A stretch of 64,000 nucleotides of DNA from Geosiphon pyriformis uo1 (taxonomy: Eukaryota > Fungi > Glomeromycota), in contig JAAOMT010000571.1 of the NCBI GenBank assembly GCA_016748015.1, positions 1,360,524-1,424,523 of the forward strand, given 5' to 3'. Made by a program: the position numbers and the translations under genes. Below are positions 10,436-57,974 of this stretch, in pieces. Numbering within the stretch: position 1 is the stretch's first letter; every line of letters begins with the position of its first letter. The notes under the pieces were generated by a model, which worked only from the letters and a program-made list of their open reading frames with translations, was not told the DNA's origin and ran no database searches.

Positions 10436-11278
10436 TATTACTCATAAAAAAAAAACAGATATAGAAAATAGTAAATTAATAGGAAAATAGTAGTTAGCAC
10501 ATGAGCATATTGCTCAGCAATGTGAAACAATATTAGAAATCACAGCACATTGCTTAGCAATATGAAGTGATGTTAAAAAATTAGGGCACATTGCTTAAGA
10601 AATCATAATACATTGCTCAGGAATGTAAGCAATCTCATAGAACATCAATTATGTATATATAGCAGTAGTATTAGAAAAAAAAAAGACAGACCTCCCAGTT
10701 TAGATTTGATCTAAGCAATCTTTCATTCACAAATATCAAATAAATAATTATTCACTATCTCAATTTACTCTTTATTATTAATACTTTATGTTAATAGTAA
10801 TTGATACTTAAACCATGAAATAATAGTTCTTGATTATGGCTATTGATAGAATACTAACATTTATCACTTTGGCTTATTTCTTTTATTTTTATTTTATTTT
10901 CTTTTGTTATTTCATTTGTTTTACTAATTGATTAAAGAGTAAAAGCACTGAATTATTGACATCAAAGATAGCCTGGTAAAAGACTCCAAAGAAAGTGTAT
11001 AATATTGAGAATTTAAAGATAACTTACTAAAAAGACATCTCTGTCAAATTACCAGCCACTATGCTGAGAAAAAAATTGGATAGAATTGCAATTCTGAGAG
11101 ACTACTGAAACAACTATTGAATCTCTGTTCATTATATAAAAAACTCAACAACACAATTTTCAGACTATCAAAACCTTCAGATTAACCAAATCTTCAGAAA
11201 TCATCATCATTATATTAATTGAACACCAAGTTATGGGTTTGTTATTTGCTTTGAGACCCCAAATAATCATTTGTAACA
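10436..11278 (+). repeat. 5' LTR of B
   Basis: T(A)TTAC...GTAACA termini; direct repeat of 21089-21874; TATA-like box ~10654-10661. Confidence 0.93.
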
Positions 11279-11280
11279 TT

Positions 11281-11297
11281 TGGTGCTTCCTGTGAGG
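11281..11297 (+). promoter_or_regulatory. Primer-binding site of B (TGGTGCTTCCTGTGAGG)
   Basis: Complementary to a tRNA 3' end CCTCACAGGAAGCA-CCA, 2 nt after the LTR. Confidence 0.9.
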
Positions 11298-11340
11298 TAT
11301 AATTTTACAGAAAACCAGCACCAATGACAATCATCTAAAA

Positions 11341-19866: not shown

Positions 19867-20539
19867 ACAACCAAAAGAGTATATAAAGACATAGTATATA
19901 TGACAAAAGCAGCAAAAAAAAATGGAAATACCAGATCATATTCATATTTTAATTCAACAATTGTTTCAGGCTTCAAGTCAACAGCAAGTAAACATAGAAA
20001 TTATCATCAACAACCAAACAANNNNNNNNNNNNNNNNNNNNTAACCAACTACCAGATAAACCAGTTGAATTCAAAATTGGAGACAAAGTATTTTTACATC
20101 ATACCAAAGCAAAAAAACAATGAAATAGAAAATTTGACCCCAAATAGAATGGACTATTTTACATAGAAGGAATTCTAGAAAATAGAGCTTATAAATTAAA
20201 ATGAAACAACAAAATCTTAACCAAAGCAGCACATGGTGATTGACTGAAACTATATTATCATATAGTGTTATCATCTACCAGTAATATTCCACAATTAGGA
20301 ATACAGAGACTACTAGTTCAATCAAATGAAATTCCACGAGATCTGAAACCAATCATAGTTATTAAATCAAACACATCAAATTGAACAACCAAAAGAGTAT
20401 ATAAAGACATAGTATATATGACAAAAGCAGCAAAAAAAAATGGAAATACCAGATCATATTCATATTTTAATTCAACAATTGTTTCAGGCTTCAAGTCAAC
20501 AGCAAGTAAACATAGAAATTATCATCAACAACCAAACAA
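19524..20539 (+). other. Exact 498-bp duplication flanking a 20-N gap (20022-20041), probably an assembly artefact
   Basis: 19524-20021 equals 20042-20539; identical ORF translations at offset 518. Confidence 0.85.
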
Positions 20540-21075
20540 TCTGTTATCAAAACACCAAACAAAAAGAGAAAAGTACACCATACCAGCAACTACAAAAACA
20601 ATCAATAAACTGGTTAGATAAAATAATAGAGAAGGTAAAGAACACTTTTGAAAAGATAACCATCATGGTTCCAATAGAAAAACTGGCAAAAGAAAATTGG
20701 AACAAATAAATAGACCAACTTCTAATACCATACTGCTACTATCAATTGGAACAAAAAGTAGATATTCAGAAGTTATATCTTGACAAATCTAAGAGAATCT
20801 TCAATTAAGAGATAATCCGGAATATTAAAGACATTATTAGAAAGAAAACAAATTTAACACTACACATTAGAACCATTTATTGACTACACACTATATTTCA
20901 AAACTACCCAGAAGTATTGTTATACTCTGACATGGAAACAATAATTATCAACCAATAGGGAAAAATGAACAACTCACAAATCAAAGAAATAAAGAGTAGG
21001 GTAAAACAGATGCTACTTAAAAAAGAAGTATTTGACATAATTCAAAATGAAAATTTTAACAGAGCTCAATATTAA
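20440..21075 (+). pseudogene. ORF3 of B, unknown ~211 aa protein
   Basis: One frame from MEIPDHIH to FNRAQY* with internal stops; YCYYQL motif shared with D, related motif in E and G. Confidence 0.85.
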
Positions 21076-21088
21076 AAAGAGAAGATAA

Positions 21089-21874
21089 TATTACTTATAA
21101 AAAGAAAAAACAGATATAGAAAATAGTAGACCAATAAGAGAATAGTAGTTAGCACATGAGCATATTGCTCAGCAATATGAATATTGCTCAAGAAATCATA
21201 ACACATTACTCGAGAATGTGAGTGATCTCATAAAACATCAATTATGTATATATAATAATAGCATTAAAAGAAAAAAAAACAGACCTTCTAGTTTAGATTT
21301 GATTTAAGCAACCTTTCATTCACAAATATCAAATAAATAATTATTTACTATTTTAATTTACTCTCCACTATTAACACTTCATGTTGATAGTAATTGATAC
21401 TTAAACCATACTGGAACAATAGCTCTTGATCATGGCTATTGATGGAATACTAACATTTATTGCTTTGGCTTATTTCTTTTATTTTTATTTTATTTTCTTT
21501 TGTTATTTTGTTTGTTTTACTAATTGATTAAAAAATAAAAGTGCTGAGTTATTAACATCAAGGATAGCCTGGTAAAAGACCTTAAAGGAAGGGTATAATA
21601 TTGAGAATTTAAGGATAGCTTACCAGAAAAGCATTTCTGCCAGATTACCAGCCACCATGCTGAAAAAGAAATTGGATGGAATTGCAATTCCGGGAGACTA
21701 CTGAAATAACTATTGAATCTCTGTTTATTATACAAAGAACTTAACAACACAACTTTTAGACTATCAAAACCTTTAGATCAACCAAACTTTCAGAAACTAT
21801 CATTATTATATCAATTAAGCACCAAGTTACAGGTTTGTTATTTGCTTTAAGACCCTAAATAATCATCTATAACA
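21089..21874 (+). repeat. 3' LTR of B, preceded by PPT 21076-21088
   Basis: Direct repeat of the 5' LTR, shorter by loss of U3 repeat units. Confidence 0.93.
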
Positions 21875-23259: not shown

Positions 23260-26194
23260 GTATGCCCAATATACCCAAATACTCTTCAAAATGCAGTTAT
23301 TCATGCCAAAAATTTTGAATTGGCAGAACTTAAAACCAATTATGTCCAAGCTGTCACTTAGTAATGAACAGATTATTTAAATTAGATTTTAAGCTAAAAC
23401 AATTTAGTAATTCAATCAACCAAAAATTAAAAAAATATTTAGCTAATAATTAAGTAATTTATTAGCTTCCTCAATATTATGACAATTTAGGAAATTTAAA
23501 TCAATTCCAAAATCAGCCATGTTTATTATTATTATTATCAAATCAATTATAATAACAAAAAATGTGTAATTGTTACTATTGTAATAAACAAAACTATTTA
23601 AAAGCAAATTGCTATTTCAAATTTAATAACTCACAATTAAGAAACCAATATAGAAGTCCAAATCACAGATTTCAAACCCAAAACTACATCAATAATTCGT
23701 TATTTAAACAATACCAATCATATTACACACTAATAATACAACAACTAATATATTTATCTGTCATTTATCAAACTTTAACACCAGTAATATATCAACTATA
23801 GTCACAAGTAATTTATCAATTTTAACAAATTCAAATACTATTTTAATATACTATATTAATATCAAATAAAATTCAAAAACTAAGAATTACCTATATTCAA
23901 CAAAATTGAAAATTAGCAATAATTATGTACCAACTAATCTCCAGTTTATTAAACCAGCCATTAAAATTACATTTAAAAAATTCAGGAAATGGGTAAACCC
24001 AAAACCCAAATTTTCAGAATTATTTAAATCTATTGGTAATTCCAGAAATTACAACACCCAAATTATTAGAAATCAATTCAATACCACTTACTAACAATAT
24101 TTCATTAACAACTGTTATAGAAGACAAATTACTAATTACTATCTTTTTATTTGAATTAAAAGATTAATCAAAAACCTTATTATTTAGTGGAACTGTTTTT
24201 AATGCCAAATTTATTATTATTATATATACTAATACCAAAGTTAATGGCCAATTTATCAAACTAATCTTTAATAATAGGCAGCAAACAGCATTATTACATG
24301 ACAATTTATAGACTAATTAAATTACTAAGTTAATTATACAGCCAATACCAAAATTATCACAGCCAATAAAGCAGCCAAAACTCTAATTAGTGAAATTAAC
24401 AACTTCTTTTTTAAAGTCAATAATATCATTACATCCATTAAAATTCTTATTATAAAAGCCACACAGTACCAAATTCTTGTTGGTAATAATTGACTGTTTA
24501 AGACTAATACTGTGCTTAACTGAAATACTCAGAAGCTATAGCTTAATTAAAATAATTAGCATATTTAAGTATTAGCTATCTATAGTCATTTTAAAACAAC
24601 CTAATTACAGCCATTAATAGAATTTAAGAAAGAAAAAAAACCTATCTAGAAGACTTAGCAAGTCTTATAAGCTAAAAATAATTACAATAAACTACTGCTA
24701 ATACTCTTTTGAAACAATTAGAGAAAAAAAAAAAAAGAAGACAAACTATAAGTCACTATTTTCACAAAAAAAACAAACAATAATTGGCATATTTCATATT
24801 TATTAGAACCAAAAAAAAAACCACTCTACTACTAAAATCTAGCACTCATTCAAGAAAAACAAGAACAGTATTTAGAATAATTAAATGCTAGATTCTGTAA
24901 ATATTGTCTAATTTTTAGTGACTTTAAATATTGTAACAATTGTAATTTTATTTACAATCTATCACCACAGATGATTTATTTAATTTCCAAAAAAAAAACC
25001 AAATAGTGAATGTGTTTTGAAATCAGAATCAAAATTTAATCATAATTTAAACTTTAATAATAATAACAACAATGATTCTAATATTGTTTACAATAATAAC
25101 AATAGCAACAACAATCCAAATTCCAATTCTAAACTCAAACAATATATTATGCTTCCAGATTTTTTAATAGAGCAGAAATTTAAATAGTTTAGCAATAATA
25201 ATAAAAGTATCATATTAGAATAAATACATAATACTAATACAAAGTTTAATCTCAGATATTTTTAAAAAACTGCTATCAGATTGGAATCTTATTTATGTAT
25301 CAGTATAAATTTAGGAGATTTAAAAGATTTCAACAGAGCTTAATATTAAAAAGAAAAAATAATATTACTCATAAAAATTAGGAATTATAATAATAAGTAA
25401 AATAATCAATCAGAAATAAATATAATAAAAAGAAAAATTCCAGGATTTTTTTTGAAAAATTACAGAATTGCAAAATTGCAAAATTTTAGAATTTCTGTTA
25501 AAGAAATTGAAAAATTTTAAAGAATTTTGTATAACATAAATTATATATATATAGCAAGAGTATTAAAAGCAAAAAAAGACTAGACTTAAACAAAATAGTA
25601 GTTAACAATAACTACTTATTCCATACTCTTTCTTTTAAAATATAGTTTTTTATAATTTGAAGCAGAATTATTTCCATATTAATAAAATTATCCATTATCA
25701 TCCAATTTATGTTATTATTATTTGATTAAAAAAATATTAATATTTCTATATTATAATACTCTATGTTAATAAAATTCAATACTTAACTATACTAAATCAA
25801 TAGTTTTTAATTATAACTATTGATAAAGTATTAATTTTTTATTTTCTTTTTTTCTTTTTTTTATTTTGTTTCTTTGTTGTTTACTAATTAATTAAAAAAA
25901 TTAAGTATTAAATATTTAACATCAAGAATAATCTGGTAAAAAACCCAAAAACAAGAGTAGAAAACTTAAGAATAGCTTACCAGAAAGGCATAACTGCCAA
26001 AATAAATTGGCCATCATCCTGAAAAAAAAAATTCACAAAAAAAACCATTAATTAAATCTCTGTTTATTATATAAAAAACTCAACCAAAATCTTTAAACTC
26101 TAAAACTTTCAAAAATTACCAACATTCTTAGCTATTGAGCACCAAATTATAGGTTTATTATTTGTTTTAACACCCTAAATAATTATTTGTAACA
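23260..26194 (+). mobile_element. Old, internally deleted Ty3/Gypsy copy C (gag C-terminus, PR, Cys-rich part, dUTPase start, ORF3 tail, PPT, 3' LTR)
   Basis: CYYCNKQNYLKANC knuckle remnant in 23562 ORF; protease remnant ~24240-24500; junction to ORF3 tail at ~25310; LTR 25363-26194. Confidence 0.85.
25363..26194 (+). repeat. 3' LTR of C
   Basis: TATTACTCATA...TGTAACA; follows decayed PPT; similar to LTR of A. Confidence 0.85.
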
Positions 26195-27904
26195 ATATAT
26201 TAAATATTAAATTCTAATAAGTTATAATATTATAAATTAATTTCAATTCTTTAAAATTAAAAGTCCAACATTATTTTTTCATAATATTAGAATAAAAAAC
26301 AAATTTTAACAATTAATTTTTAAAGCTAAATAATATGTAAAATACAATAAACTAAGATTATAGGTATTTTAAATTTAATAATTAAACAAAACCAATTTTA
26401 ATTATATACTTATCTTAAAAATTAAATTCAAATTTAGAATATTCAAGATATTTAACTTAATATTTTTTTTAGCAATATTATTAGTTTTTAATATTTTTAA
26501 TATATTTTAAACTGCCAAATTAATGATATAAACAATATAAATAATATGATTTTTATGTTTATTAAATTCAATATTTTTATTTTGATTAATGTTTTTAAAA
26601 CAGTATATAAATATATTATTATTTTATAATATATTTAAGAATTTAAAAAATTAAAAATAAATAAAAATATAATAAAAAAAATATTAAGTTTTTTACAATA
26701 TTTTACAAATACTATAGCAGAATTTTTTTTTTATTAAAATTTAACAAATGCAGTCTAATCATTACCTAAGTACATAAAATCAAATAAGATTCTAAATTAA
26801 AAGTGGTTCATGTCTTTTCTATACATGATTAGACACTTAGTTTAGTTAAGACAGCACTATGTACTTACAGGATTTGTCAAAAGAATATTACACAAGACAC
26901 CAAAACCCAATTCAGTAAGATAGAAACACAAACCAAAACTCATATGAACACCCAACCTGATACCGAAGCTACAGATAATATTAACAGTCCAAACATCTGA
27001 CAAACCAGCCACCGAAGGCACCACAGATCCATCTCATAATAAAAGATTGTGCTTCTTATAGAAGGCCCTCAATTTGGCTGCAGGCAACCAAATATCTGAT
27101 CTATGACTCTTTGTAAGACTGTGAACCAACTTAACAATCAAATAGCCACCAAAATCAAAGCTAAGGCACTAAAAAGCATTAGCTGTTCAGCTTTTTAACA
27201 CAAATCTCTTGGCCAACAACATGTACAATTTACCAGACAACTCAGCTTTATGCAGAGATTGTTCCACCTACTTTTCACAGCAGACCCACCAGCCATTTTA
27301 TTCCACATCTTACTAATGGACAATAATATAGATCTCCTGGCATTGTCATCATGTGTACAAAAAACAGGTGATCAGAGTCCTCAACCATTCTACACCTAAT
27401 GCACATTATGCTAGAATATTTGGAATTGTACAATCTCTTCCTTACAGTGACTGGCAGGCAGTGATGCAGAAATTTTATAAGGTAGGACTGCAGAGAAGCT
27501 GAAGACAAACTGGTGTGACTGGAGCAGATCTTACCATTAGGGTGCCAAACACTGAATGATTTAGGTGTGTTAATATTACCAGCAACACCACCATTAACAA
27601 TGTTGGCACCATACCTGGATTCCCAACTGACAAAATTAATAGTGTTGAACAAACTTTTGACAAAATAACATGCATTTCCAGAAACAGATCTGTTTTCAAT
27701 CCTAAAAAATTGATATGGCATGTCTAGGGGCAGTATAGACTCAGAGATAACTGCTGCATTAGCAAAAAAATTCACTTGTTTATTCCCAACAATGTCTAAA
27801 TGTCCCTTGACTTTTTTCCACATAACTGACAGATTTTTTTTCAAAATAACTTGATGAATATGTTTCTTCTTGATCCAGCATTTGTGGCAAAAATTAGGAC
27901 CCGA

Positions 27905-28781
27905 TGTTATGGTTTAAGAATTTAGCAAAAAGAATCATAAAAATAATACAAACTATTCAATCATAATATAGCACAGTAATGATCTTAGAAAGGTAATGAT
28001 TAACATAGTAGCAAACACCATCTCGCGATAGTGGCAAGCACCAGTTCACAATAGCAGCCAACACCAACTGGTGATAGCAGCAAACACCAGGTTGAAATAT
28101 CAAAAAAAAGTATTACAATGTGTTTTCTTGTAGAACTACAAACATGTATATATACAGTAGTTTTAATATTGGGAAATAATTAATCAAGTAATAAAAATCA
28201 TAACTTATCAAGCAATAGATCCAATTTTATCCAACAAACTCCACTTTAAATCATACTTTCAAATTAAATATCCCAAGAAACCTTTAAAATCAAAAAGAAA
28301 TGAAAAAGAATATTTAAAACTGAACTATTACAACCCAAAGTATTAAGAAACTTACTTGTATTATTTATTGAATGAAACTATCATTCATCAACTGAATCCC
28401 TTGGAAAAATAATCCTTGATCAAGATTATTCATGTTGTTATTAATTGATAAAAGCTTTATTGTAAGAATTAGAAAAGTGCTAAAAGACCATTAACATTCT
28501 GTGTTTCTAGAGTAAAGAAACACATCAGGCAATTGCAAGGATAGCCTCAGAGAAGACCCCAAACAGTGGGTAGATTTCAGTTCAGCCTCTGAAAAGAAGT
28601 ACATAAACACACACAACAATCAAGAATCGAAGAATAACTTACATTGCAACAGTAAAAAGAAAGCCTTCAGTGTAACAGTGACATTATCACACAAATAAGA
28701 ATTGAGGAACTCACGAAAGACTGATTGCAATTAAAACAGGATATCAGCAATTAAATATAACAAGAAAACTATTCCGTAACA
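27905..28781 (+). repeat. 5' LTR of D
   Basis: TGTTATGG...CCGTAACA; about 97% identical to the 3' LTR pieces. Confidence 0.95.
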
Positions 28782-28783
28782 TT

Positions 28784-28800
28784 TGGTGAACCTTACGAGG
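28784..28800 (+). promoter_or_regulatory. Primer-binding site of D (TGGTGAACCTTACGAGG)
   Basis: TGG start 2 nt after the LTR; differs from the PBS of the other copies. Confidence 0.85.
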
Positions 28801-31800: not shown

Positions 31801-34549
31801 AATTCTCATCTGTGACTGGGTAAGAGGAGGAACGCCGTTCAAAGCAGTGTTCAACAGAGTGTTAAAAAGACTACAGCACTACCCACATGACGAGGACGAG
31901 TTGTACAACACCACACAAGCCAAAGTAAGAGGAGAAACCGCCAAAAAAATATGATGTTGGAAAGAGTTAGCTGAAGTAGCCAATGAAGTCACCAGCTACA
32001 ACATGTTCGACCCAGTGGACGAATTTCAGAACTACTACCAACAACTATGCCCCACTCAACAAGAGCAAGAACAATACTTCACCCAAATCAACACTTATCT
32101 CTGCGAAAACTGTCTCATCCCATGCCAAAATCAGTGCTGTGAAGAGTGTTAAGATGAAAGAGACTTAGAAAGAAAAATGGAAATTGAGAATCAGCAGTCT
32201 CAAAATCAATCAATAAATCAACAAGACTCACCTGACGATCCTGAGTCAGAAAAATTTGTAGCCTATACTGACCTAGAACAGATGACCAACATCCAATACT
32301 TCAACAATGGGCACTTAGGAATAATACCCAAAAGAGCCCATCCAACCGACACCGGATTTGATCTACGTTATCTGGAAGACCAATCTACAATGTTACCACC
32401 CAAGAGCATCACCAAAATCGACCTAAAAATAGTGGTTGAAATTCTGCCAGGAATAATGGTTCAAATGGCATCACGATCAAGTCTCGCGAAAAAAGGAATA
32501 AGTGTTCAAGAAGGAGTAATTGACTCCGGATACACTGGAAATTTAATGGTTTTGCTACAGAACAATTCAGAAAAGCCTTATACTATTGAATCTAAGAAAA
32601 AGATTGCACAAGCAATTTTCTTACCATTGGTAAAAATTGGGAAATTCATGCCAGTGGAAAATCGTGAGGAATTGTCACAAACAACGAAAGGAACTTTTGG
32701 TTTCAGATTAACAGGAAAAGGAATTGAAGTGAATTTTGCTAAAACAATAGAGGAAAAAAGCGAAGTAATTAAAAATGAGCAGTCCATCACACTCTTACCA
32801 TATGGAAAATCAGAAATAAGAATAAAAAAGACAATTAAAGAAAAAGACCTAATATTTGAGCCCTATCCAGAAACTTGCCAACAGTTTCTCATAGGACTTA
32901 CTAACCTTTTTATTCCAGCTGATAAAGCTCAATGGATAAAAATTCCTATCACAAACACTACAGAAGAACCCATTTACATTCCGGAAGATACCATCATTGG
33001 ATACCTCGGAATGGAGCTAGAAAATGCGTCAACACCACAAGAAATTCTAAATTTCTCAGAAATCGCCCTCTATTGTGAACTCACTTCAATAAATTGGCAA
33101 CAACTGTTAGAATGCTATCAATTTACGCCAAAAGAATTGGCCAAATTAAACATTGGAACAATGGATCCTGACCAACAGCGACAATTAAAAGCATTAATTT
33201 TAAAATACTCTGATATATTTTCAAGAAATGGCGAATTTGGAAGAACCAACTTGGTTCAACACCAAATCCCCACTGGAGACGCCAGACCTGAAAAACAACG
33301 CACTTACCGTGTCCCACCAATGGAGCATAATTTTATCAGAGAAGAAGTCCAAAGCATGTTGGAAAAAGGAATAATACAACCATCAATAAGCCCATGGTCC
33401 TCACCAGTTGTTTTAGTAAGGAAAAAGAATGGAAAAATTAGATTTTGCGTCGACTATCGCAAACTAAACAGCAAAACAACCAAAAACTCATACCCAATAC
33501 CATTAATTGATGAAATCTTTGATGTTTTTGGAGGAGCAAAATGGTTTTCTACACTGGACTTGACCAGTGAGTACTGGCAAGTGGAAATGGACCCAAAGGA
33601 CAGGCATAAAACAGCATTCACAACACAAAATGGCAATTATGAGTTCAATGTAATGCTATTTGGATTAACAAACACTCCTGCGACATTCCAAAGACTAATG
33701 GATGTAATTTACTTTGGAATCCTGTGGCAATCCGTTGTTGTCTACTTGGATGATACAAATGTTTTCTCATCAAAATTCACAGATTATTTCCAACATTTAC
33801 AACAAGTTTTTGAGAGATTGAGACATGCTGGACTTAAACTAAATCTAGAAAAATGTTTCTTTGGGAAAAATGAGCTAGCATTTTTAGGACACATAGTTGG
33901 AAAAGATGGAATAAAACCAGATCCATCAAAAATAGACAAAGTGAAAAATTTTCCAGTATCTCGAAACGTTTCAGAAGTTAGAAGCTTTTTAGGACTCGCA
34001 TCTTACTACCGCCACTTTGTAGAAAACTTTTCAAACATCGCCAAACCCCTTAATTATCTACTATCTAAAAATGTGAAGTTTGAATGGACTGAAGCACAAA
34101 AAAAAGCTTTTGAGTACCTTAGACAAAAGTTCATTGAATCACCAATAATGATCTATCCGAATTTCAACAAGAAATTCATTTTGGCCACAGATGCCTCTGG
34201 AACTGGACTTGGAGCCATTCTGTCACAAAAAGATGATAATGGAAGAGAACGTGTAATTGCTTATACCAGCAGAAGTCTCAGTACAGCAGAACAAAACTAT
34301 GCAGCACATAAACTTGAATGTTTAGCAGTAGTTTGGAGTTGTGTTCACTTTGACACATATTTACGGTACCAACCCTTTGAGATTACGACAGATCATAGAG
34401 GTCTGGTCTGGTTAAATAACAAGAAAGCACTAAAAGGAAAATACACCAGATGGTCACAAACGTTAGCACCATACGATTATATTATCAAATACAAAGAAGA
34501 TACCAAAAATGCTAATGCCGACTGTTTGTCAAGAATAAGACACACATAA
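28864..34549 (+). pseudogene. gag-pol: Gag-PR-Cys-rich-dUTPase-RT-RNase H polyprotein of D (few stops, one inferred 23-nt deletion at ~31090)
   Basis: ORFs 28864, 30268 and 30532 are in one frame; CHFCKRIEHLISQC; LILDSGS; 790-aa ORF with RFCVDYRKLN, YLDD, TDASG, TDH, NADCLSR. Confidence 0.96.
32330..32719 (+). CDS. dut: Trimeric-type dUTPase domain inside Pol of D (homologues at ~2970-3360, ~16255-16650, ~47325-47720, ~52758-53150)
   Basis: Five motifs: DTGFDL, RSSLA, GVIDSGYTG, IAQ, KGTFGFRLTG (decayed RGxxGFGSTG). Confidence 0.93.
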
Positions 34550-34578: not shown

Positions 34579-35386
34579 ATAAACAACCACCTTTACAAAA
34601 ATCTCAGCCAATACTTGGAAACACTACAAATAGACAAAGAAATGCCAGTAAAAGAGCTAATTAAGCTCCAAAAATTAGCAAAACACTATTTCATCCAAAA
34701 TCACATACTTTATTACTGGAATCGACAAAATCCAGATAATCCATTAAGAGTTATAACTACGGATGAAAAAGAAACTATCTTATTTAACATGCACTCAGAT
34801 ATTTATTCAGGCCACTTTGGAAAAACAGCAACCATCCAACGTGCAACTAGCCATTACTATTGGCCAAAAATAAGTTCAGACATAATCCAATACATAAGAA
34901 NNNNNNNNNNNNNNNNNNNNTGAGATTACGACAGATCATAGAGGTCTGGTCTGGTTAAATAACAAGAAAGTGCTAAAAGGAAAATATGCCAGATGGTCAC
35001 AAACGTTAGCACCATATGATTATATTATCAAATACAAAAAAGATACCAAAAATGCTAATGCTGACTGTTTGTCAAGAATGAGACACACATAAAAATCACC
35101 AACCCACCTGCCACAACAACAATGAACAACCATCTTTACAAAAACCTCAGCCAATACTTGGAAACACTACAAATAGATGAAGAAATGCCAGTAAAAGAGC
35201 TAATTAAGCTCCAAAAATTAGCAAAACACTATTTCATCCAAAATCACATACTTTATTACTGGAATCGACAAAATCCAGATAATCCATTAAGAGTTATAAC
35301 TACGGATGAAAAAGAAACTATCTTATTTAACATGCACTCAGATATTTATTCAGGCCACTTTGGAAAAACAGCAACCATCCAACGTG
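34579..35386 (+). pseudogene. int: Integrase N-terminus of D, present twice around gap 34901-34920 (starts 34579 ATA, 35122 ATG)
   Basis: NMHSDIYSGHFG (HH of HHCC), YYWP; separate frame from Pol. Confidence 0.88.
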
Positions 35387-35437
35387 NNNNNNNNNNNNNN
35401 NNNNNNAGATTCCAAAATAGCAGTCAAAATTAAAACA

Positions 35438-36106
35438 ATGATACTTATTCCAGAAAACATCAACAATATAACTCAACAATTAGTTGAAAGCTTACAACAA
35501 TTAAAATCTGATCTAGAAATCACAGTTAATAGCTCCAAAATAACATACATAAAAAGAACAATAAAAAATCCAAAAACAAGAAAAGAACATAATTTTGAAC
35601 CATATAATATTACCAAATATAACAACAAATTTATTAGCAAAGTTATTGAAAAATTAGAAATAGCATTGGGCAATACATTAATAATGGAAGAAATAGAAAT
35701 AAGTGAATTAACACCAAACACATTTAGCAACTTGAAAACAAAATTTCCAATTAATTACTGTTATTATCAACTAGGAAAGCACTTAAACATACAAACATTA
35801 TACTCAAAAGACTCAACTAAAGTGTTTGACAAAACAACTATCCAACTATTAGAACTTTTCATTGGAAAAACCAACACTACATTCCATTCAAAAACAGTTT
35901 ACAGAATTTTCAAAGCATTTGAAAACTGTCACAAATTATTGTTGGACCCAACCATGAACATAATAACAACCAACAGTATTGAACGACTTACCAACTCACA
36001 ATTTCAAGAATTATAACAACAAATTAATAACACAGTATTGAACCACTATAGTAACTTAGAATTTAATAAAGAAATTAACTTCGATTTCGATGGAGCTCAA
36101 TCTTGA
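35438..36106 (+). pseudogene. ORF3 of D, unknown ~222 aa protein with one internal stop (36014)
   Basis: MILIPENINNITQQL...YCYYQLGKHLNIQTLY...LTNSQFQEL...FDGAQS*; stop overlaps PPT GAAAGGAGGGG. Confidence 0.88.
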
Positions 36107-36119
36107 AAGGAGGGGATAA

Positions 36120-36417
36120 TGTTATGATTTAAGAATTTAGCAAAAAGAATTATAAAAATAATACAAACTATTCAATCATAATATAGCACAGTAATGATCT
36201 TAGAAAGGTAATGATTAACATAGTAGCAAACACCATCTTGTGATAGTGGCAAGCACCAGTTCACAATAGCAGTCAACACCAACTGGTGATAGCAGCAAAC
36301 ACCAGATTGAAATATCAAAAAAAAGTATTACAATGTGTTTTCTCGTAGAACTACAAACATGTATATATACAGTAGTTTTAATATTGGGAAATAATTAATC
36401 AAGTAATAAAAATCATA
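36120..36417 (+). repeat. 3' LTR of D, first 298 bp (last 108 bp at 37299-37406)
   Basis: Aligns to 27905-28202 with 7 transitions. Confidence 0.93.
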
Positions 36418-36437: not shown

Positions 36438-37278
36438 GCCAACGAAAAGGAGGAGCAAAAACAACGGAATTATTAAGACCAATAAAAGTTGGACAGCCAT
36501 TTGACAGAATCAGAATTGATTTAGTTGGACCCTTACCAATAACAACAAGAAACAACTGTTATATTGCAGTAGCCATGGACTATCTCACCAAATGGCCAGA
36601 AGCTAGAGCTATTAAAACAGCTGATGCTATTTCCATAGCTCAATTTGTACATGAAGACTTAATTTGCCGACATGGATGTCCACAAGAATTGCTATCAGAT
36701 CAGGGCACACACTTTGTAAACAGCACCTTAAAAGAATTTAGCCAAAAATTTGGAATCAAGCGACCACTGTCATCACCATACCACCCTCAAACAAATGGAT
36801 TAGTTGAAAAATTTAATCGCACATTATGCGAATCACTGGCAAAAATTAGTAACGAACATGAAAAAGAATGGGATTTGTTCATACCAACAGTACTACTAGC
36901 ATATAGAACAGTAAAACAAGATACTACACAATTCACACCATTTGAACTAATTTATAGAAGAAAAGCCACATTACCAGTTGAATTTACTATCCCAACTTAT
37001 CCAAGTGACACTATCACGGAAGCAACATTCCAGGAAACATTACTTAAAAGAACATACGAATTAATAGGAACTTTAGAAAACAAAAGAAGAAAAGCAGCAC
37101 AAAATATTGAACAATCACAAGAACAACAAAAAGTGAGACATGATAACCAGTTACCAGATAATATAATTAGCTACAAAATTGGAGATAAAGTATTGTTGCA
37201 TCGTACAAAAATGGAAAAACAGTGGAGTGGAAAATTTGATCACAAGTGGGATGGACCATTTTATATTCACAAAATACT
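36438..37278 (+). CDS. int: Integrase core of the D family on a mis-ordered contig
   Basis: IDLVGPL, LLSDQGTHF, NGLVEKFNRTL (D,D35E), WDGPFYI; bounded by N gaps. Confidence 0.93.
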
Positions 37279-40200
37279 NNNNNNNNNNNNNNNNNNNNAA
37301 CAGTGACATTATCACACAAATAAGAATTGAGGAACTCACGAAAGACTGATTGCAATTAAAATGGGATATCAGCAATTAAATATAACAAGAAAACTATCCC
37401 ATAACACCGACATGTCCACATTAAACTTATATACATCCAGTGATGCCTAACTATCTGTGAACAATTCAACTGTGCTAGAAACAGGCACACATTCCAGTAC
37501 CAAAGCAATGCCTTGCAGCTCTACCAGTGTTGAGAATAATAATCCAAAAACTTTTATACTGATGCTAGCATCGGCTTTTAGAAAATAAGCAGCAGTGCTG
37601 CCATAGGCACCAATAGACCCCAAACTTTTGACAGACCCATCAGTGTAAACTTCAACAGAGTTACACTTGGATGCCAACAAATGCTCAGACATAGAATAAA
37701 TGTCACAAGAAGATTTGGTGAGAGCAGAACAAGACTTTGTAGACATGTTATCACCCAAACCACCACTTTTAACAAAATTAGTAACAGAAACAAACCAGAT
37801 TGGAATTGGACCTCTTGGGTCAAGTTTTTTCTATCTATGAAAAGTGTTCTAAGTGAAGCACATACCATAATAATCCAAAAGTTAATTAGCAAAAATGAGG
37901 CTGTATCTCCTGAGAGAAGTTCTTACATCCAGATAACCATCCAGGCCCAGTACATCCAAGATTGACACACTAGTTCCAGTCTGAAAAACATTAGAAAAAG
38001 CACTACTTAAGGAGGTTTTGCACAAAGTGAGAACATGTGTAGCACTAGCCAAAAAACAATTCAAAAAATTAACAGGTAACATGACCAGAAAGCAAAGAAA
38101 GTGCTGGGGCATTTAGCTAGCAGCCTGTAGATCTATTGCTCTGTGTTTGAAAAATCTGCTGAGAGTCTTATCAATATTATTAAAATTGATCAGGTTGGCC
38201 AGCAAGTTTTTAAAAAGCACTTGTTCAAAAAGCTTCAGGCCATACAGCTCAGGATAATGCAGTGCCACACTAGAAAAGTTTTTGGGCAAATTTGCCTTGA
38301 ACTTAAGCTCTTTTCTTAATGATTTGTTCCATTTCTCACAAACACTCTTAGAAGCAAAGCTAAATTGAAGTCTGTAACAAATAATAGGCTGCAAAACAGC
38401 AAAAACCAAATACAAAAATTGTTTTTTAGTGATGGCTTTTTTCAAAACTACATTCAAAAAGAATTTGACATCAATATGAGCTTTGGCTAAACTTGGCTTG
38501 GAAAGGCTCTTAGTTGACAAAAAAATTCCCAAATAATGATGAGACTCTCCCTTTTTAGCCATTGAAATTCTTGAACCACTAATAAATAGTTTAGTCTTTC
38601 TAGCATCTTGATTAATGGGGATAGTGACAGTCTTCTCAGTATTAATTAAAATATCATTGACAGAAAAAAACTTACTGGCTATATTCAAGATATTTTGTGT
38701 TACCACCAAGTAATTTCCAACCCAGATTGTGTCATCCACAAAAGTGTTCATAACAAAAAACAAGATTCTGTTATTACCTGGGTCAGATTTGCTGAACTTA
38801 GTGTAGAATTTTAAACACATTCAATAGTCATACAATTGTTCATGTTTTTTGACTTCACAAAGCAATAAGTCATAGAAAATATGCCACAGCAATAATGAAA
38901 ATATCTCCTTTTAATCCAGACTATCATGCACAACATAACCATCAGACAAACCAAATTCTATCATAACCTGATTAAATCTACCATTGTGTATGCTGCCAAA
39001 GAAGCTTATGAAGTAGAAATACATTTTGATTCTAATCAAACTATTGAGTAAATAAGGCCACCCAACAGAATCATAGACCTTGTGCATGTCTTGAAAAACC
39101 AATCACAACTTCCTGTTTTTCTCCAGAGCGTCTTTGACAATTGAGCCAACAACAAAAATAGAAAATTGTGTAGAAGTGCCTTTTAACACCAAAAAATTGT
39201 CACCATGTAAAATGTCAAACCTGTTGTAAGCCAGAAAGATTCTATCTGAAAAAATTTTAGATAAGATCTTTCATGCAGTCTCAATCAGTGCTATTGGTCT
39301 AGTATTGGTAAGAATGCCCTTCCAATTATAAAGTTTAAGAATCATGAAAACCCAGGACTTTTTTTATTGTATAGGAACTCTTCCAGATTTTAAACATCCA
39401 TTGAAAATACCCAAAAGACTATTGAGAACCAAAGAATCACTGTGCTTCCATAATTTGTTGGAGATACCAAAAAGCCCAGCAGCCTTGCCATCTGGCAAGT
39501 TTCTGATGACCTGCTGAAGTTCATCCATGCTAACATTGCACATAACCCCTGAAAATGTATTATCATCTACGTAACCTAAGGGAGCATATTAATCAGACCA
39601 ATGATTCAGCAAAGCACCAGAGACCAAATGTTTCCTTGTCTACTCTTCTATTATAATATCAATTGAAGACTTGACAGCCTGAAGCTCTAAGATAAGCTCA
39701 TTGTTAACAATCAAATAATTGAAAACCACCTTTCTAAAAGACCAATTTAAAATACTACTTATTATTTACCTTTTATTCGAGCTAAAATTCTTCATGTATT
39801 TCAACATGGCTCTTTTGATAGAATTATCTCTGGCAACTCTAGATTTGTAATATTTAGATCTGTGGTAATCTCTCTTAACAACTAAAATATGACATAAAAT
39901 GTTCTTAACCTTATTACTCTTATCAATCATAATATGAATCTTGGATGCCTCCTTCCCATCTATGTCTGCCCAAGTATCAATTAAGCAGTCAATCTCCAAA
40001 CTCAGATCTAAATTTAAACTAATAATAATTTTGGACATCAACAACTCCAACCTGTAAAACCTAAAAGACAACTTGTTCCTTACACCTTCAAACTCACTGA
40101 ACCAGAGTCTGGAGAATGTTTCATTAGCAGAATCAATTATCACCCTTTTAAAAATATTTCACATGTTGTCCAAATTTCTACCATGTTTTGCGGCTTGAAA

Positions 40201-41041
40201 ACCAATTGACTTCTTCAAAAATTTGTCTAAAGAACACTTCATAAAACGTTTCCACCCATTAACATTTACACCCTTTAGCTTGAATTTCCGGTGATCTTTA
40301 CTTGCCTGTTTGCACAAACCCCCCAAATGAACATTTAAAAGCCCATCCAAGTCCACTAAAACTAAGACAGCTTTATGATCAGTATCAAAAAATTTAGACA
40401 CAGAGTTGACTTTGTGACTGGCCATTGCTGAGATTAGGTTCTCACTAATCAAGATGTAATCAATAACTTTTACAACACCCTTCAAATTGCTCCATATAGA
40501 AGCTCTAGCTAAAGGATGTCCACCAAAAAATTGACTAAGCCTAGACCCAAAAAAAATCTATAACTCACACTTTTCTTAGATCTGCCCTTATTAAAATCAC
40601 CACCCAAAACAACAAAACTGCTGGAGTTGACCACTCGAGTTATGAAAAAATTAATACCAGATGTCTGTTCAAACTGGTTACCAGAAGAGGCACAAGTGTA
40701 CAAACCAATAATTGAGACTGAAATCTTGCCCTTGAAAAGAAGATGCACTGAAATAACATGATCAGAAATCTCTTTTATCTTGAAAACATGTCGAGCCAAA
40801 GAATTGTTCATAATTATTGCCACCCCAGTCCCAAGAAACCCACTATTCAGGCCAGATGTAAAAATGCGCACTCCATCAAATCTGTTCATAATTCATGGCC
40901 TAACATTAGATCTTAATTTTGTTTCCATAACAATAGATACCATATTTCCAGACTTTTTGTGCCAATAAACAATGTCTTTCTGCTTAACAGAAACATTGAG
41001 ACCTTGAACATTACACATAGCAAACTTCCATACTAGCTCCG

Positions 41042-42486
41042 TCATTGAAAAGAGAGAGCAGCAGGAACCAAATTGGCATTGTCCATTTTGGCTGATAGGC
41101 CCATAACTATGATTGCAAAATTTTTTAAAGTGTTCTCCATTTTTTCAATAACAGAAGAATCAAAAATCACCACCCCTACAACAATCTCACTACCAGTGGC
41201 CACACTTAAACTCTCACTTATCATTATATTCATCCCTTGATTCTGTAATGAAGGGGTCACCAATGGCTGACATCCAGGGCTAAGCTGGGAAACCATTGGC
41301 TCAGGTGCTTCCAACCTCTTAGCCAGCATATCAACATGTTCTGCAAGGCTGGCAAAACTACACTCAAGAGCGGCAAACCTATCATTGATTTCCATCACAA
41401 CCAGTAGGAATGACTTCATCTCCAAAAAAAAGCCAATATTCACTGAAACAATCTGGCTAGAAAGAGGAGAAAAAAAAGATCTACCAGCTATCTTAGCCCA
41501 AAAAAGACCACCAAAAGAAACAGAACGAGCAACCAAAGCAGATTATTTGGCATAAATTGCAGCCAGTCTGCTTTTATCTGCATCTGAAAGCACTCTATGC
41601 AATGAGCTACCAGAAAAAATCTTCCTACCCTTAGTACAGCTTAATAATATATAACCCAGCTTCTCATACTTGGTGTATTTGGCAGACATAAAACTAAACC
41701 AATGCAAATTAGTGTCTTTGAGCACTGGTATGGTTCCCATAATAGCATCCAATGATTCAACAGAATTGAAACAAACAACAGTACACCTAACCCAGGCATA
41801 TGTAACTGGATGATGATTGATGACACATGTTTTCCCACCCACAAATCTAACAAAGTTTCAGATATTATGAGCATTAGTCCCTATTGGCAGTATGTAGAGC
41901 AGCATCCTATGATGATCCTTTGCATCCCATGATTCTTTGTCTGAATCAGCTCTAACAACATACACAGCATTCTTTTCAATTAAGATGGACTATTTAGCTG
42001 CGACCAAATTAGCATAATCTGACTGCTCAAATTCTACCATTGCTTTCTGCCACAGTCTCACCAATTGCATCTTGATTGACTTAATTATTCCAAACTCAAA
42101 TAGTGTAGTACACACAGCTTCAGCCAATGTTTCAACTGGAATTTTCTTAACCACCACAGCTTGATCTGAATGACCAGGTGATTTTTTGAGATCAGTGTTT
42201 ACTAAAATATTCACTGCTCTTGCCTTTTCTGTAGCCTGCACCAAACTAGATTTGGAAGTAAAAGAAGCATGAATAATCTCTAAGAACTTTGAGGAAGTAG
42301 AGGCCTTCTCAAAACCATTGACTTTTGAAAATAGTTTTTTGACCACCACTTGCTTTTTCTAAGAAGATTTCCCAGCCACCTTATCCAGCTCAATATCTAT
42401 AGCAAAAGATTTCCAGATAGAAATATTGACCAAATTCTTCAAGAGAAGAGGAAAAACCACAGAAGTATTTAAAAGAATGTTATCAT
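41042..42486 (-). pseudogene. LINE ORF1 (RRM-like repeats, decayed CCHC knuckle, C-terminal coiled-coil-like region), N-terminus missing
   Basis: VVVKKIPV...KAMVEFE and GGKTCVI...CTVVCF RRM-like segments; AKYTKYEKLGYILLSC; directly upstream of ORF2. Confidence 0.8.
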
Positions 42487-43353
42487 TGTTACAGATGATT
42501 ATTTGGAGTCTCAAAGCAAATAACAAACCCGTAACTTGGTGCTCAATTGATATAATAATGTTAATTACTGAAGGTGGTTTGTATCTGAAGGTTTTGGCTA
42601 AGTTTTTTGTATAATGAACAGAGATTAAATAGTTGTTTTCAGTAGCCTTCTGGAATCGCAATTTCATCAATTTTTTTCTCAACTTGGTGGCCAGCAATTC
42701 TCTAGTAAGTAATCCATAATTCTTGTACATGTTCTACCAACTCACAGGGGTCTTTTACCAGGCAATCCTTGATGTCAATAATTCAGCACTTAATTCTTAA
42801 TCAATTTAATAAACAAAACAAAAAGAAATAAAAAAATAAAAGAAAATAAAGAAAATAAAAAAATAAGCAAGATGATTTTTCAAGTTAATATCTCATTAAT
42901 AGTCATGATCAAGAGCTATTGTTTCAGTGTGGTTAAGTATGAATTAATATAAACATGAAGTGTTAATAGTGGAAAGTGAATTGAAATAGTGAAATAATTA
43001 TTTATTGATATTTGTGATGTGAAAGGTTGCTTAGATCAAATCTAAACTAAGAGGTTTCTAACCAAAAGATTCTACTTTTTTTCTTTCTAATACTACTGCT
43101 ATATATACATAATTGAGATTCCTTGATTTCTCAATTCTTCACACCAGAAATCCTGGAATTCCTGGAATTTTGTAATTCCTTTTGAGAGGAATTTTGGAAT
43201 TCTGGAATTCTGTGATTCCTTATATGAGAATTCTGAAATTTCTGGAATCCTGTAATTTCTCTTAAGAAAAATCCTGGAATTCCACATTTACTATGACTAC
43301 TTCTGATTGGTTACTTTATATGCTAATATACTTCTTATATTTTATAAGTAACA
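42487..43353 (-). repeat. 3' LTR of E
   Basis: TGTTAC...GTAACA; GGAATTCC-type U3 repeats; homologous to LTRs of B and G. Confidence 0.92.
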
Positions 43354-43366: not shown

Positions 43367-44018
43367 TTAATATTGAGTACTATCAAGATCTCCTAAATTT
43401 CCTAACTCTAAATCTCCTAACTTTAAATCTCCTAACTCTAATTCTCCATCTTTGAGTATTTCTTAAACTTCTTTTTCGAGGATTACTTGTATTATCTTGT
43501 TTTGTAATTTTTCAAATTGGGCATTGATTATTTTTTCCATTTGGTTAACTGTAATGGAATTCATTTCTGGATTAAGTAAGATTTCTAGTCTATCTTGAAA
43601 TCCAGTATATAGCTTATATATGGCTTTTGCTTGTGTAGTCAAATTGTTCTAGTTGTTGCAGTATTGTTGTGTCAAATAATCATTTTGTTTTATCTGTGTA
43701 TAAGTTCTAAATGTTTACATGTTGTTCCAAGTGAAAATAACAAAAGTTTTTTGAAAATTCGAATATCCATCATTTCCAAGTTTCTTTGGTTAACTCTCAA
43801 TATGTGGTAATATTTATTGGTTCTTCTATTGCCAATTTTATTTTTAGAACCATTTTGTCAATAGTGTTTTCTGTTTTTCTTTGAATTTTGTATTTAGGTA
43901 TCTTTCTGATATCTTACTATCAAATAGTTTGTTGGTTAATAGTAATTTTCATATTCTGTTGTTGAATTAGTTGGAAAAGTTGTTGTGTTAGTGAGTGAAT
44001 ATTGTCAGTGATTTCCAT
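43367..44018 (-). pseudogene. ORF3 of E (frameshifted)
   Basis: MEITDNIHSLTQQLF...QLEKIINAQFEKLQ...STQY*; homologous to ORF3 of G. Confidence 0.82.
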
Positions 44019-44078
44019 TTTATTGAAATTTTTTGTTGCATCTACTATGTCTTTATATATTCTTTTTATTGTTCCATT

Positions 44079-47882: not shown

Positions 47883-48745
47883 TGTTACTCATAGAATATA
47901 GAAAATATAGTATTATTAGTCAGTAGATATTAGCCAATCAGAGGTAGACGTAGTAAATATGGAATTTCAGAATTTCTCTCAGAGAAATTGCAGGATTCCT
48001 TGACGAGGAATTGCTGGATTTCAGAATTCCAGGATTTCTTTCATCAGGAATTGCAGGATTCCAGAAATCCCAAGATTCCTGTTGCAAAGAATTGAAAAAT
48101 TGAGGAATCTCAATTATGTATATATAGCAGTAGGATTAGAAGCTGAAAAGACAGACCTCTCAGTTTAGATTTAATCTAAGCAACATTCCAGTTCCCAATC
48201 ATCAAATAAATAATTATTCCATATCTCAACCCACTCTCTACTATCAACACTTCATGTTGACAGTAATTGATACTTAACCATGCTGGAACAATAGCTCTTG
48301 ATCACGGCTATTGATGAGATACTAACGTACCAAATTGCCTTGGCTTATTTTCTCTATTTTCTTTATTTTTATTTTCTTTATTTTATTTTCTTTCTTTCTT
48401 TGATTTTGTTGTTGTATACTAATTGATTAAAAAAATTAAGCGCTGAGTTATTGAGGTCAAGGATAGCCTGGTAAAAGACCCAGAAATAAGGGTAGGATTT
48501 TATATATTATCAGATAGCTTACCAGAAAGGCACAACTGCCAGACTAAATCTGGCCACCACACTGAGAAAAAAATTGGGAAAACTCATCTACTATTGACCC
48601 TATTGAATCTCTGTCCATTATACAAAGAACTCCATCAAAACCTTCAAATACAACACTTACAGAACCTTATCCATGGAAGTAGCTTTTGAGCACCAAGTTA
48701 TGGGTTTGTTATTTAATTCAACAGCAGAAATAATCATCTGTAACA
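47883..48745 (+). repeat. 5' LTR of G
   Basis: TGTTAC...GTAACA; direct repeat of 57126-57974. Confidence 0.95.
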
Positions 48746-48807
48746 TTTGGTGTTTCCTATAAGGTATATTTCTACAGAGAACCAGCACTGACAACACCAA
48801 ACCAAAA

Positions 48808-54800: not shown

Positions 54801-54983
54801 AGCCAGAAGTTTGAAGTATACACAGATCACAAGGGATTAATATCACTCCAAAAACAAGAATTTGAAGATAAAAGACAGTCAAGATGGAAAATGGCACTCG
54901 CACCATACAATTATACTATACATTACAAAAAAGGAAAAGATAATAGAAATGCTAACAGTTTGTTGTAAATGAGACAAATCTAA
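48808..54983 (+). pseudogene. gag-pol: Gag-PR-Cys-rich-dUTPase-RT-RNase H of G
   Basis: Gag and PR in one frame; LILDSGS; 340-aa dUTPase-containing ORF 52758-53780; YLDN (decayed YLDD); ends MRQI*. Confidence 0.93.
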
Positions 54984-55045
54984 GAACATTTTAACACAAA
55001 AATATAACAAAACCAGAACAATACCAACGAAAAATATAACAAAAT

Positions 55046-56429: not shown

Positions 56430-56482
56430 TTGACAAAAGAATATATAAGAACATGGTCAACACAACAGAAGATATCAGAAAA

Positions 56483-57112
56483 ATGGAAATTATGGACAAT
56501 ATCCATTCACTAGCCCAACAAATTTTTCAATTAATCCAACACCAGGAGATGGAAATTACCATCAATTAACAAACCATTTGTTACAAAAATACAGTAAAAA
56601 TACCACCAAACAAAGCACAAAAAAGACTTGAAAACGTGGTTGACAAGATTATAACCAAGATAAAATTGGCCATAAAAGAACAACAAATAGTCGGATTACA
56701 CTAAGAACTTACCAGAAAAACTTGGACTTGGTGGATACAACAATTTCCAAAAAACTATTGTTATTTTTACTTGGGACAACACATAAATATTCAGAACTTG
56801 TACACCGACAAAACAAAATGGTTATTTGATACCACCATACTGGGACAACTAGAACAATTTGTGGGAAAGAACAATCTAACTACACAAGCTTGAGCCATTT
56901 ACAGGATATATATGAGATTTCAAGACTGACCAGAAATCTTACTCAACACAACAATGGATACAGTTACGAGTAATCAATTGGGAAAAATGACCAATGCCCA
57001 ATTTGAAAAACTACAAAATAAAATAACACAAGTAATACTCGAAAAAGAAGTTCAAGAAATAATTCAAGAAGGAAAATTAAAAGAATTAGATTTCAACAGA
57101 GCTCAATATTAA
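56483..57112 (+). pseudogene. ORF3 of G
   Basis: MEIMDNIHSLAQQIF...YCYFYLGQHINIQNLY...QLGKMTNAQFEKLQ...FNRAQY*. Confidence 0.85.
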
Positions 57113-57125
57113 AAGAAGGGGATAA

Positions 57126-57974
57126 TATTACTCATAGAATATAGAAAATATAGTATTATTAGTCAGTAAGATATTAGCCAATCAGAGGTAAACATAGTAA
57201 ATGTGGAATTTCAGAATTCCTCTCAGAGGAATTGCAGGATTCCAGGAATTTTAGGATTCCCCAGCGAGGAATTGTAGAATTCCAAAATTCCAAAATTCCT
57301 CTCATCAGAAATCACAGGATTCCTGTTGCAAAGAATTGAGGAATTGAGGAATCTCAATTATGTATATATAGTAGTAGGATTAGAAACTGAAAAGACAGAC
57401 CTCTTAGTTTAGATTTAATCTAAGCAACATTCCAGTCCCCAATTATTAAATAAATAATTATTCCATATTTCAACCCACTCTCTACTATCAACACTTCATG
57501 TTGATAATAATTGATACTTAACCATGCTGGAACAATAGCTCTTGATCATGGCTATTGACAAGATATTAACAATTGTCTTGGCTTATTTCCTCTATTTTTT
57601 TTATTTTATTTTCTTTCTTTTTGTGATTTTGTTGTTGTATACTAATTGATTAAAAAGATTAAGCACTGAGTTATTGACATCAAGGATAGCCTGGTAAAAG
57701 ATCCAGAAATAAGGGTAAGATTTTATATATTATCAGATAGCTTACCAGAAAAGCACGACTGCCAGACTAAATCTGGCCACCACACTGAGAAAAAAATTGG
57801 GAAAACTCTTGGAAAGATACATCTACTATCGACCCTATTAAATCTCTGTTCATTATACAAAGGACTCCATCAAAACCTTCAGCACTTGCAGAACCTCATT
57901 CACGGAAGTAGCTTTTGAGCACCAAGTTACAGGTTTGTTATTTAATTCAACAGCAGAAATAATCACCTGTAACA
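57126..57974 (+). repeat. 3' LTR of G
   Basis: Direct repeat of 47883-48745. Confidence 0.95.

Follow-up and report, generated by a model that had tools for sequence, protein, structure and literature searches.

Additional open reading frames (ORFs) are common in long terminal repeat (LTR) retrotransposons and their function is mostly unknown, as stated in the accessible part of PMC7264820. The same part of that source describes sense ORFs, such as those of Athila and Bagy2, as Env-like, with transmembrane segments and spliced messages, and lists antisense ones in Grande (gene23), Retand and Botrytis Boty; gene23 of maize Grande has its own promoter and a nuclear product. In foamy viruses, Tas (Bel1) is expressed from an internal promoter and binds motifs in the unique 3′ (U3) region of the LTR (PMC3185757, accessible part), and VANC, described as MAIL1-like, belongs to the VANDAL elements, which are plant MuDR DNA transposons (10.1101/2024.04.02.587720, accessible part). 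Here we describe a gene, called ORF3, at the 3′ end of LTR elements in a 64,000-nucleotide (nt) stretch of Geosiphon pyriformis uo1 DNA (contig JAAOMT010000571.1, positions 1,360,524 to 1,424,523; the window). The window consists of AT-rich eukaryotic DNA, interrupted by five 20-N gaps and densely filled with related LTR elements, lettered A to G. Our preferred reading, to which we give a probability of about 40% for the mechanism as a whole, is that ORF3 encodes a separately transcribed, Tas-like regulator that would bind a repeat array in the U3 region of its own element.

The nearest described class is that of the sense additional ORFs located between pol and the 3′ LTR (aORF-3S, with Athila and Bagy2; PMC7264820, accessible part), and ORF3 agrees with it in lying in the same interval and sense, in being present in most copies and in being conserved about like pol. 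Unlike those Env-like, spliced products, however, ORF3 appears soluble and has a TATA box upstream, and no sequence link was detected between it and the additional ORFs of the elements covered in that part of the source. Fungal Gypsy elements from Postia (PosPlaTy3), Phanerochaete and Tuber, as described in the accessible part of PMC2864245, share with the present elements a dUTPase at the amino terminus of pol (PosPlaTy3-3) and an unexplained extra ORF, but that survey centres on chromoviruses of other phyla, whereas the elements here gave no chromodomain match. For the extra ORF, that part of the source reports neither a sequence nor a promoter nor any pairing with U3. On our preferred reading, ORF3 would resemble Tas, so far as the cited part describes it, in being an accessory gene at the 3′ end with a candidate internal promoter and candidate target motifs in U3; it differs in its Ty3/Gypsy host without env and in that its U3 motif is not seen near the internal TATA box. 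We do not count it as a member of the Tas family, and no Tas/Bel1 row appeared for it in Pfam or the fold searches. With VANC, as the cited part presents it, ORF3 has in common that it is a fast-evolving accessory protein encoded by a transposon, and its partners would be tandem motifs particular to each family, in a genome that is probably methylated (CpG observed/expected 0.19 in the window); no MAIL1-like match appeared in the family and fold searches. What is new here is an unnamed protein family and the pairing of a gene with a promoter, since extra ORFs at this position are already known.

A sense ORF3 is found between pol and the polypurine tract (PPT) in all four elements with an intact 3′ internal region (B, D, E and G). 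The copy of D (35438..36106, + strand) translates into 222 codons plus stop, with one in-frame premature TAA at codon 193. By tblastn, the copies of B (20440..21075, +; 211 codons) and G (56483..57112, +; 209 codons) have four internal stops each, and that of E (43367..44018, −) has a frameshift near 43645 and eight internal stops. The encoded proteins are 28.5–64% identical (tblastn within the window): 32.6% between D and G over 221 residues (E 4e-31), 28.5% between D and B over 200 residues (E 6e-19), 40% between G and B and 63–64% between G and E. An earlier note on this DNA had placed an ORF between integrase and PPT in these four elements and had quoted a set of shared motifs. Its coordinates are exact and the motifs are present in the ORF3 alignment, but none of the copies is intact and in the assembly that of D does not stand directly behind an integrase. 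The ORF3 of D follows a 20-N gap (35387-35406), and the D-type integrase core (36438..37278, +; Pfam and tblastn) has wrongly been assembled downstream of the 3′ LTR, with an N gap on either side. As the assembly of D is scrambled around its N gaps, the order integrase–ORF3 is taken from B, E and G only.

The ratio of non-synonymous to synonymous change (dN/dS) was 0.42, 0.24, 0.31, 0.25, 0.11 and 0.31 in the six ORF3 copy pairs, values that must be taken as rough because dS is near saturation in several pairs; the codon pairs come from a protein-guided alignment, which favours low dN. For comparison, four pol pairs gave 0.19–0.27, three integrase pairs 0.19–0.40, and shifted-frame controls 0.50–1.13. 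In all six pairs the differences by codon position ranked 3>1>2. The selection proposed in the earlier note is thus borne out, with no pair near the value of 1 that would have spoken against it, and we are highly confident that ORF3 is a real, selected gene.

Upstream of ORF3, a TATATAA sequence is present in all three readable copies, 42 nt before the ATG in B (20398..20404, +) and 41 nt before it in G (56442..56448, +) and E (44053..44059, −); in D this position falls in the N gap. All seven TATATAA columns are invariant across B, G and E, against 17 of 35 in the spacer behind, and the background frequency of TATAWAW is 0.0013 per base. The pol stop lies 53–60 nt before the ORF3 ATG in 3/3 readable copies (20382-20384 in B, 56427-56429 in G and 44081-44079 in E), while the frame relation varies: E is in frame across a single stop, and B and G are out of frame. 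Judged from these sequences, ORF3 probably has its own TATA-box promoter, with the box as the candidate core, and is separately transcribed. Many database gene models of the G type begin ten codons further upstream, at an ATG just behind the TATA box, which is probably too close to the box to be included in the message.

Each LTR examined carries a repeat array just before its TATA box, with a period near 21–23 nt, and the three ORF3 types correspond to three array motifs. The D-type array has four units at an exact 23-nt spacing in the 3′ LTR (36220..36305, +; LTR TATA at 36360) and four units at 23-nt spacing in the 5′ LTR (28005..28090, +; TATA at 28145). The B-type array consists of four units with ATTGCT-N-AGCAAT dyads in the 5′ LTR (10502..10620, +; TATA at 10652) and of three units, shortened, in the 3′ LTR (21157..21215, +; TATA at 21245). 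The E/G-type array is built of GAAT-N6-ATTC units, six in the 5′ LTR of G (47962..48080, +; TATA at 48117), seven in the 3′ LTR of G (57206..57325, +; TATA at 57361) and eight in the 3′ LTR of E (43147..43282, −; TATA at 43109). Elements A and C also have an E/G-type array; the ORF3 of A lies outside the window and that of C is deleted. A 16-mer taken from G has 16 matches in the window. All 16 fall in U3 regions, which account for 1,945 of the 64,000 nt, and neither the U3 of B nor that of D contains one. Compared with Markov controls, the dyad excess was reached by 0 of 100 controls for the 3′ LTRs of E and G, and by one for the 5′ LTR of G and the 3′ LTR of B.

The comparison of B with E and G, made within this one 64-kb window, links the gene to the array. 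In a three-way alignment, the identity of B to E and G is 70–88% over pol and the integrase tail (81–88% in the tail itself), then only 50–76% from the pol stop to about 21300, at the LTR TATA, and 62–91% thereafter, whereas E and G remain 65–85% identical to each other across the block where B diverges. The informative sites tell the same story: the pairings B–E, B–G and E–G are supported by 393, 272 and 318 sites in pol but by 44, 57 and 142 in ORF3 (chi2 62.8, p 2e-14). In U3, identity is 58% for B–E, 59% for B–G and 73% for E–G, compared with 78, 75 and 75% behind the LTR TATA. Thus, in these sequences, ORF3 co-varies with U3 and not with the integrase, because B has an ORF3 of another type than E and G although its integrase tail is 81–88% identical to theirs.

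Taken together, these observations suggest the following mechanism. Basal transcription from the internal TATA box at the end of pol would yield a small, basic, soluble and helical protein. The binding target of this protein would be the phased sites, partly dyads, in the U3 of its own element. Once bound, it might either activate transcription from the LTR, as the foamy-virus Tas does, or shield the LTR from CpG methylation, as VANC would; VANC proteins act on sequence-specific target arrays. Since gene and array would need to match, they would move together, and may be exchanged between subfamilies as one cassette. Reverse transcription copies U3 to both LTRs, so that each new insertion would gain a promoter fitted to its own regulator. 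If this were true, a Ty3/Gypsy element would encode its own transcription or anti-silencing factor, a feature that textbooks give to complex retroviruses and VANDAL DNA transposons; it would also provide a new family of protein–DNA recognition and a possible mechanism for the LTR burst in Geosiphon. Still more tentative is the wider claim that a Ty3/Gypsy lineage encodes a sequence-specific regulator of a new helical fold, expressed from an internal promoter and swapped with its cognate U3 array, such that retrovirus-like control evolved independently and was a possible driver of LTR expansion. The three natural protein types and the three short candidate target arrays make up a 3 × 3 binding matrix.

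Several points weigh against such a regulator. Binding of DNA by ORF3 is drawn from the co-variation of gene and array, but the two are adjacent, and one template switch would move both whether or not they interact; there are three types only, with a single discordant element, and with three sequences a swap and a faster rate of change in B are formally indistinguishable. The array patterns were defined once the sequences had been inspected; the 16-mer of G is more specific than the 9-mer of B, with 9 of its 38 matches in U3, or the 14-mer of D, with 6 of 15; and the dyad excess is not significant in the 5′ LTRs of B (reached by 7 of 100 controls), D (17) and A (45) or in the 3′ LTRs of D (61) and C (11). 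The E/G 16-mer has no match outside U3 at up to three mismatches, a search that would miss a degenerate site, and no autoregulatory site was thus found near the internal TATA box. As for that box, its three copies are of common ancestry and not independent, the stretch that it overlaps may equally be coding, and the in-frame arrangement of E across one stop leaves readthrough from pol into ORF3 possible.

It is also quite possible, if short of an even chance, that ORF3 is a separately expressed accessory protein with some other job, such as binding of the element RNA, suppression of small-RNA silencing, or particle assembly or movement in the coenocytic hypha, and that the arrays bind host factors and are linked to it by adjacency. 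It is common for LTR elements to have tandem enhancer repeats in U3 but to encode no factor of their own, and selection, solubility and the TATA box fit such a protein equally well. One remote homologue of ORF3 gave an ESM Atlas feature match to a closterovirus coat protein (0.91, 138 shared features, where a true family shares about 170), and in a related fungus DNA methylation and small RNAs act on transposons (10.1101/2021.03.30.436303, accessible part). On the other hand, the divergent block of B spans exactly ORF3 plus array, from the pol stop to the LTR TATA, and its array has been replaced by a different motif rather than having drifted. The obvious host-factor candidate fares poorly as well: a heat-shock-element reading of the E/G array was rejected, the three-unit match occurring in only one of nine U3 regions.

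An unlikely explanation is that ORF3 acts as a partner or readthrough extension of the integrase and steers insertion in place of the missing chromodomain. ORF3 does follow directly behind the integrase, the frames of E are in phase across one stop, and the elements are clustered and nested (G inside E), suggesting targeted insertion. The integrase tails of E and G end in an SH3 domain (SH3_Tf2-1), and no chromodomain was found in these two tails, the only ones scanned (E up to 0.1; the copies are decayed), as the earlier note had held; the domain that marks chromoviruses was thus not seen. But each of the three readable copies has a stop at the end of pol, located identically in B and G, where ORF3 is moreover out of frame, and the co-variation described above is with U3 and not with the integrase. 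Six longer database proteins contain ORF3, and the four examined join it to LTR-, gag- or LINE-like (long interspersed nuclear element) sequence, not to an intact integrase. Of the functions offered in the earlier note, that of a nucleic-acid-binding regulator has consequently gained circumstantial support, from the co-varying U3 arrays, and that of a targeting cofactor has gained none.

That ORF3 might be a decayed or captured passenger with no function at present, retained because of the PPT and the cis-signals beside it, would account for the breaks in all four window copies, for the loss of nearly all ORF3 from element C, and for last codons that are constrained as DNA. We consider this very improbable and already largely refuted, since dN/dS is pol-like across the whole length and open full-length frames persist in types only 20–29% identical. 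The breaks themselves fit decay after insertion, and most pol copies of the window are broken likewise. At 28 of the 32 positions where the D region differs from related contigs of sequencing run X1 (probably a DNA run, whose coverage does not reach the pol–ORF3 junction), the window has A/T and the contig G/C; those contigs also lack the premature stop of D. Because of this bias, the absence of the D stop there and a CpG observed/expected ratio of 0.19 across the window, the damage to ORF3 looks post-insertional. The database also holds natural copies without interruptions (P0011, P0015), and the analysis relied on intact copies of this kind instead of a reconstructed consensus protein.

A divergent or truncated Env has only the position to recommend it, in sense between pol and the 3′ LTR (PMC7264820, accessible part), and is scarcely credible given the lack of a hydrophobic stretch or furin motif, the one or two cysteines, the length of about 210 residues, the basic isoelectric point (pI) and the predicted all-helical, soluble core. 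The maximal 19-residue hydropathy is 0.27–1.05 in all five ORF3 proteins analysed, which have pI values of 8.4–9.3; no transmembrane anchor or signal peptide was seen in the five (by hydropathy, without a dedicated signal-peptide predictor), and a furin-type cleavage site was found in none of them. In the full-length structure model the N-terminus is uncertain (mean predicted local distance difference test, pLDDT, 61), whereas the core, folded from a 44-sequence alignment, is modelled as nearly all helix (pLDDT 79.6, predicted template modelling score 0.68), and we are confident in predicting a helical domain there. Hydropathy, the furin scan, the core model and dN/dS together agree with the earlier description of a soluble, helical accessory protein that is not Env.

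Neither sequence nor fold searches assigned ORF3 to a known family. No family in Pfam, PHROGs or NCBIfam scored above cut-off (the best PHROGs hit, E 0.006, is of unknown function), and the best matches to sequences of solved structures had E values of 0.32 and 1.9. With the full-length model, Foldseek against PDB and BFVD returned no rows at E 0.001, and the best VIA hit (Z 4.7) covered low-confidence N-terminal helices only. The core model gave no BFVD rows at E 0.001 and a best VIA score of Z 3.5, with 0 of 48,161 chains at Z 5; its rows at Z 2.7–3.5 include DNA-binding helical domains (SopB, KorB, BEN and CENP-B) but are within noise and were not used as evidence. Likewise, Pfam, Foldseek, BFVD and VIA yielded no significant sequence or fold row for a known fusion protein, and a confident match to a known Env or to a described accessory ORF, which would have contradicted the earlier note, did not appear. 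These null results, which concern predicted models and sequence profiles, do not show the fold of ORF3 to be new.

The earlier note had also pointed to a resemblance to DUF1016_N (PF17761), the helical N-terminal domain of YhcG-type PD-(D/E)XK nucleases, whose own function is unknown (PMC1189080, accessible part). Both families are mainly helical and share an order of motifs over about 60 columns, namely an aromatic pair, IG, and then N followed by an RxY/FY helix; ORF3 differs in having no nuclease domain and in scores below significance. Pfam assigned DUF1016_N to none of 14 ORF3 proteins, and among eight diverse homologues one matched at E 0.037, with 14.6 bits against a cut-off of 32.8. 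With hhalign, the probability was 0.1–1.3% for DUF1016_N profiles of 7 and then 86 bacterial sequences. Close ORF3 alignments gave no signal, and the diverse alignment reached a probability of 1.3% with P about 0.04, its score being equalled by 4 of 60 block-shuffled controls. The aligned motifs are those quoted in the earlier note, and the remote ORF3 members score best. On these profile comparisons, the similarity is weak and is neither shown nor excluded.

Database searches place close relatives of ORF3 in Geosiphon itself. All seven matches of a first protein search were Geosiphon pyriformis hypothetical proteins, as were 119 of the 120 matches listed (of 192) in a second, the remaining one being the window's own. 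About 190 gene models of Geosiphon (among P0002-P0132), entered as hypothetical proteins of the host, actually represent the ORF3 of the transposon, as copies or fragments; in many of them the predicted introns bypass stop codons or connect the ORF to LTR sequence. Searching 1.84 billion representatives with a profile yielded 104 matches, including a fourth close type and five remote homologues that are full-length or nearly so (P0167, P0181, P0203, P0204 and P0213; 20–29% identity); three long repetitive proteins among them (P0202, P0207 and P0215) were dropped as spurious. This brings the family to seven types with full-length frames, 20–42% identical. In the ESM Atlas, nothing was found for P0011, and 25 of 30 matches for P0167 were unnamed clusters; its best were eukaryotic, with Mucoromycota commonest (0.90), which we treat as a lead only. 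The viral contigs searched held no relative of ORF3 or of the integrase, a phage tblastn search gave no ORF3 match, and the one matching locus in metagenome contigs proved to be a chance match in a bacterial membrane-protein gene. A literature search, whose reach did not extend to the Geosiphon genome papers and supplements, found no description of ORF3.

At its 3′ end, the ORF3 stop codon overlaps the purine tract in every window copy, the PPT lying at 36105..36116 (+) in D, 21074-21085 (+) in B, 57111-57122 (+) in G and 43368-43357 (−) in E. In the deleted element C, the PPT (25348-25359, +) is still preceded by the last ORF3 codons, although nearly all of the gene has been lost. The five remote homologues terminate in ELSLEEEIML-like peptides, and the junction of PPT and LTR start in D, read in other frames, gives ELNLE and KEGIML. 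Since this junction yields peptides of the remote type in other frames, and C retains the last codons, the terminal GAQY motif probably represents a cis-signal of the DNA beside the PPT and not a protein motif. The earlier note was therefore right to put a terminal (G/R)AQ(S/Y) at the PPT, where the stop does overlap the purine tract, but its conservation is likely that of DNA rather than protein. From their terminal peptides we infer that the remote homologues, too, may derive from the 3′ ends of LTR elements.

By their LTRs and PPT, the order of pol and the reverse transcriptase match, the host elements are Ty3/Gypsy LTR retrotransposons with a dUTPase; LTR sequences make up 41.2% of the Geosiphon genome (PMC11952901, accessible part). 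The pol of D (32153..34549, +) comprises dUTPase, a protease-like region, reverse transcriptase and RNase H, as identified by Pfam and by sequence matches to solved structures. A dUTPase domain starts all five pol genes (that of D and the copies near 16150, 47840, 52700 and 3430), and the protease region weakly matches the spumavirus protease family (E 0.0018 and 0.00035). The integrase follows RNase H in A, B, E and G by tblastn order, giving, together with Pfam, the order protease–reverse transcriptase–RNase H–integrase. Among solved structures, the reverse transcriptase of D is closest in sequence to 4ol8 (E 3e-95) and 7q5b (E 5e-95; named Ty3-G Gag-Pol), with the next match at 4e-58. The LTRs occur in pairs ending in CA, with identities of 80.8% (B), 86.2% (G) and 97.7% (D, partial); the last value compares the 5′ LTR of D (27904..28780, +) with the 299 nt of its 3′ LTR visible at 36119-36417.

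Some further features of the window may be mentioned. Across one 20-N gap, a 498-nt stretch is doubled at 100% identity (19524-20021 / 20042-20539), representing an assembly overlap, and the repeated part of B comprises the integrase tail together with the TATA box and the initial 33 codons of ORF3; the gap at 34901-34920 is bordered by a similar 466-nt duplication (96%). Element G (47883-57975) is nested in E on the opposite strand, and the gag–protease region of E resumes near 58000-60400. B is bordered by the 4-bp direct repeat TTAT (10429-10432 / 21875-21878) and G by a 4-bp repeat with one mismatch, which suggests 4-bp target-site duplications. Element C (23281-26195) is internally deleted; what remains comprises a portion of gag-pol, the final ORF3 codons, the PPT and an LTR whose array is of the E/G type, and the element could be mobilised in trans. 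A putative primer-binding site beginning TTTGGTG lies directly 3′ of the 5′ LTR in A, B, D and G; beyond this common TTTGGTG, the site of D (28781-28800) is unlike those of the A/B/G group (11279-11300 and 48748-48770), hinting at different primer tRNAs. Finally, minus-strand ORF fragments located between the LTR elements (27275-27913 and 37447-42400), with a weak RNase H match (E 0.02), look like decayed non-LTR retroelement sequence.
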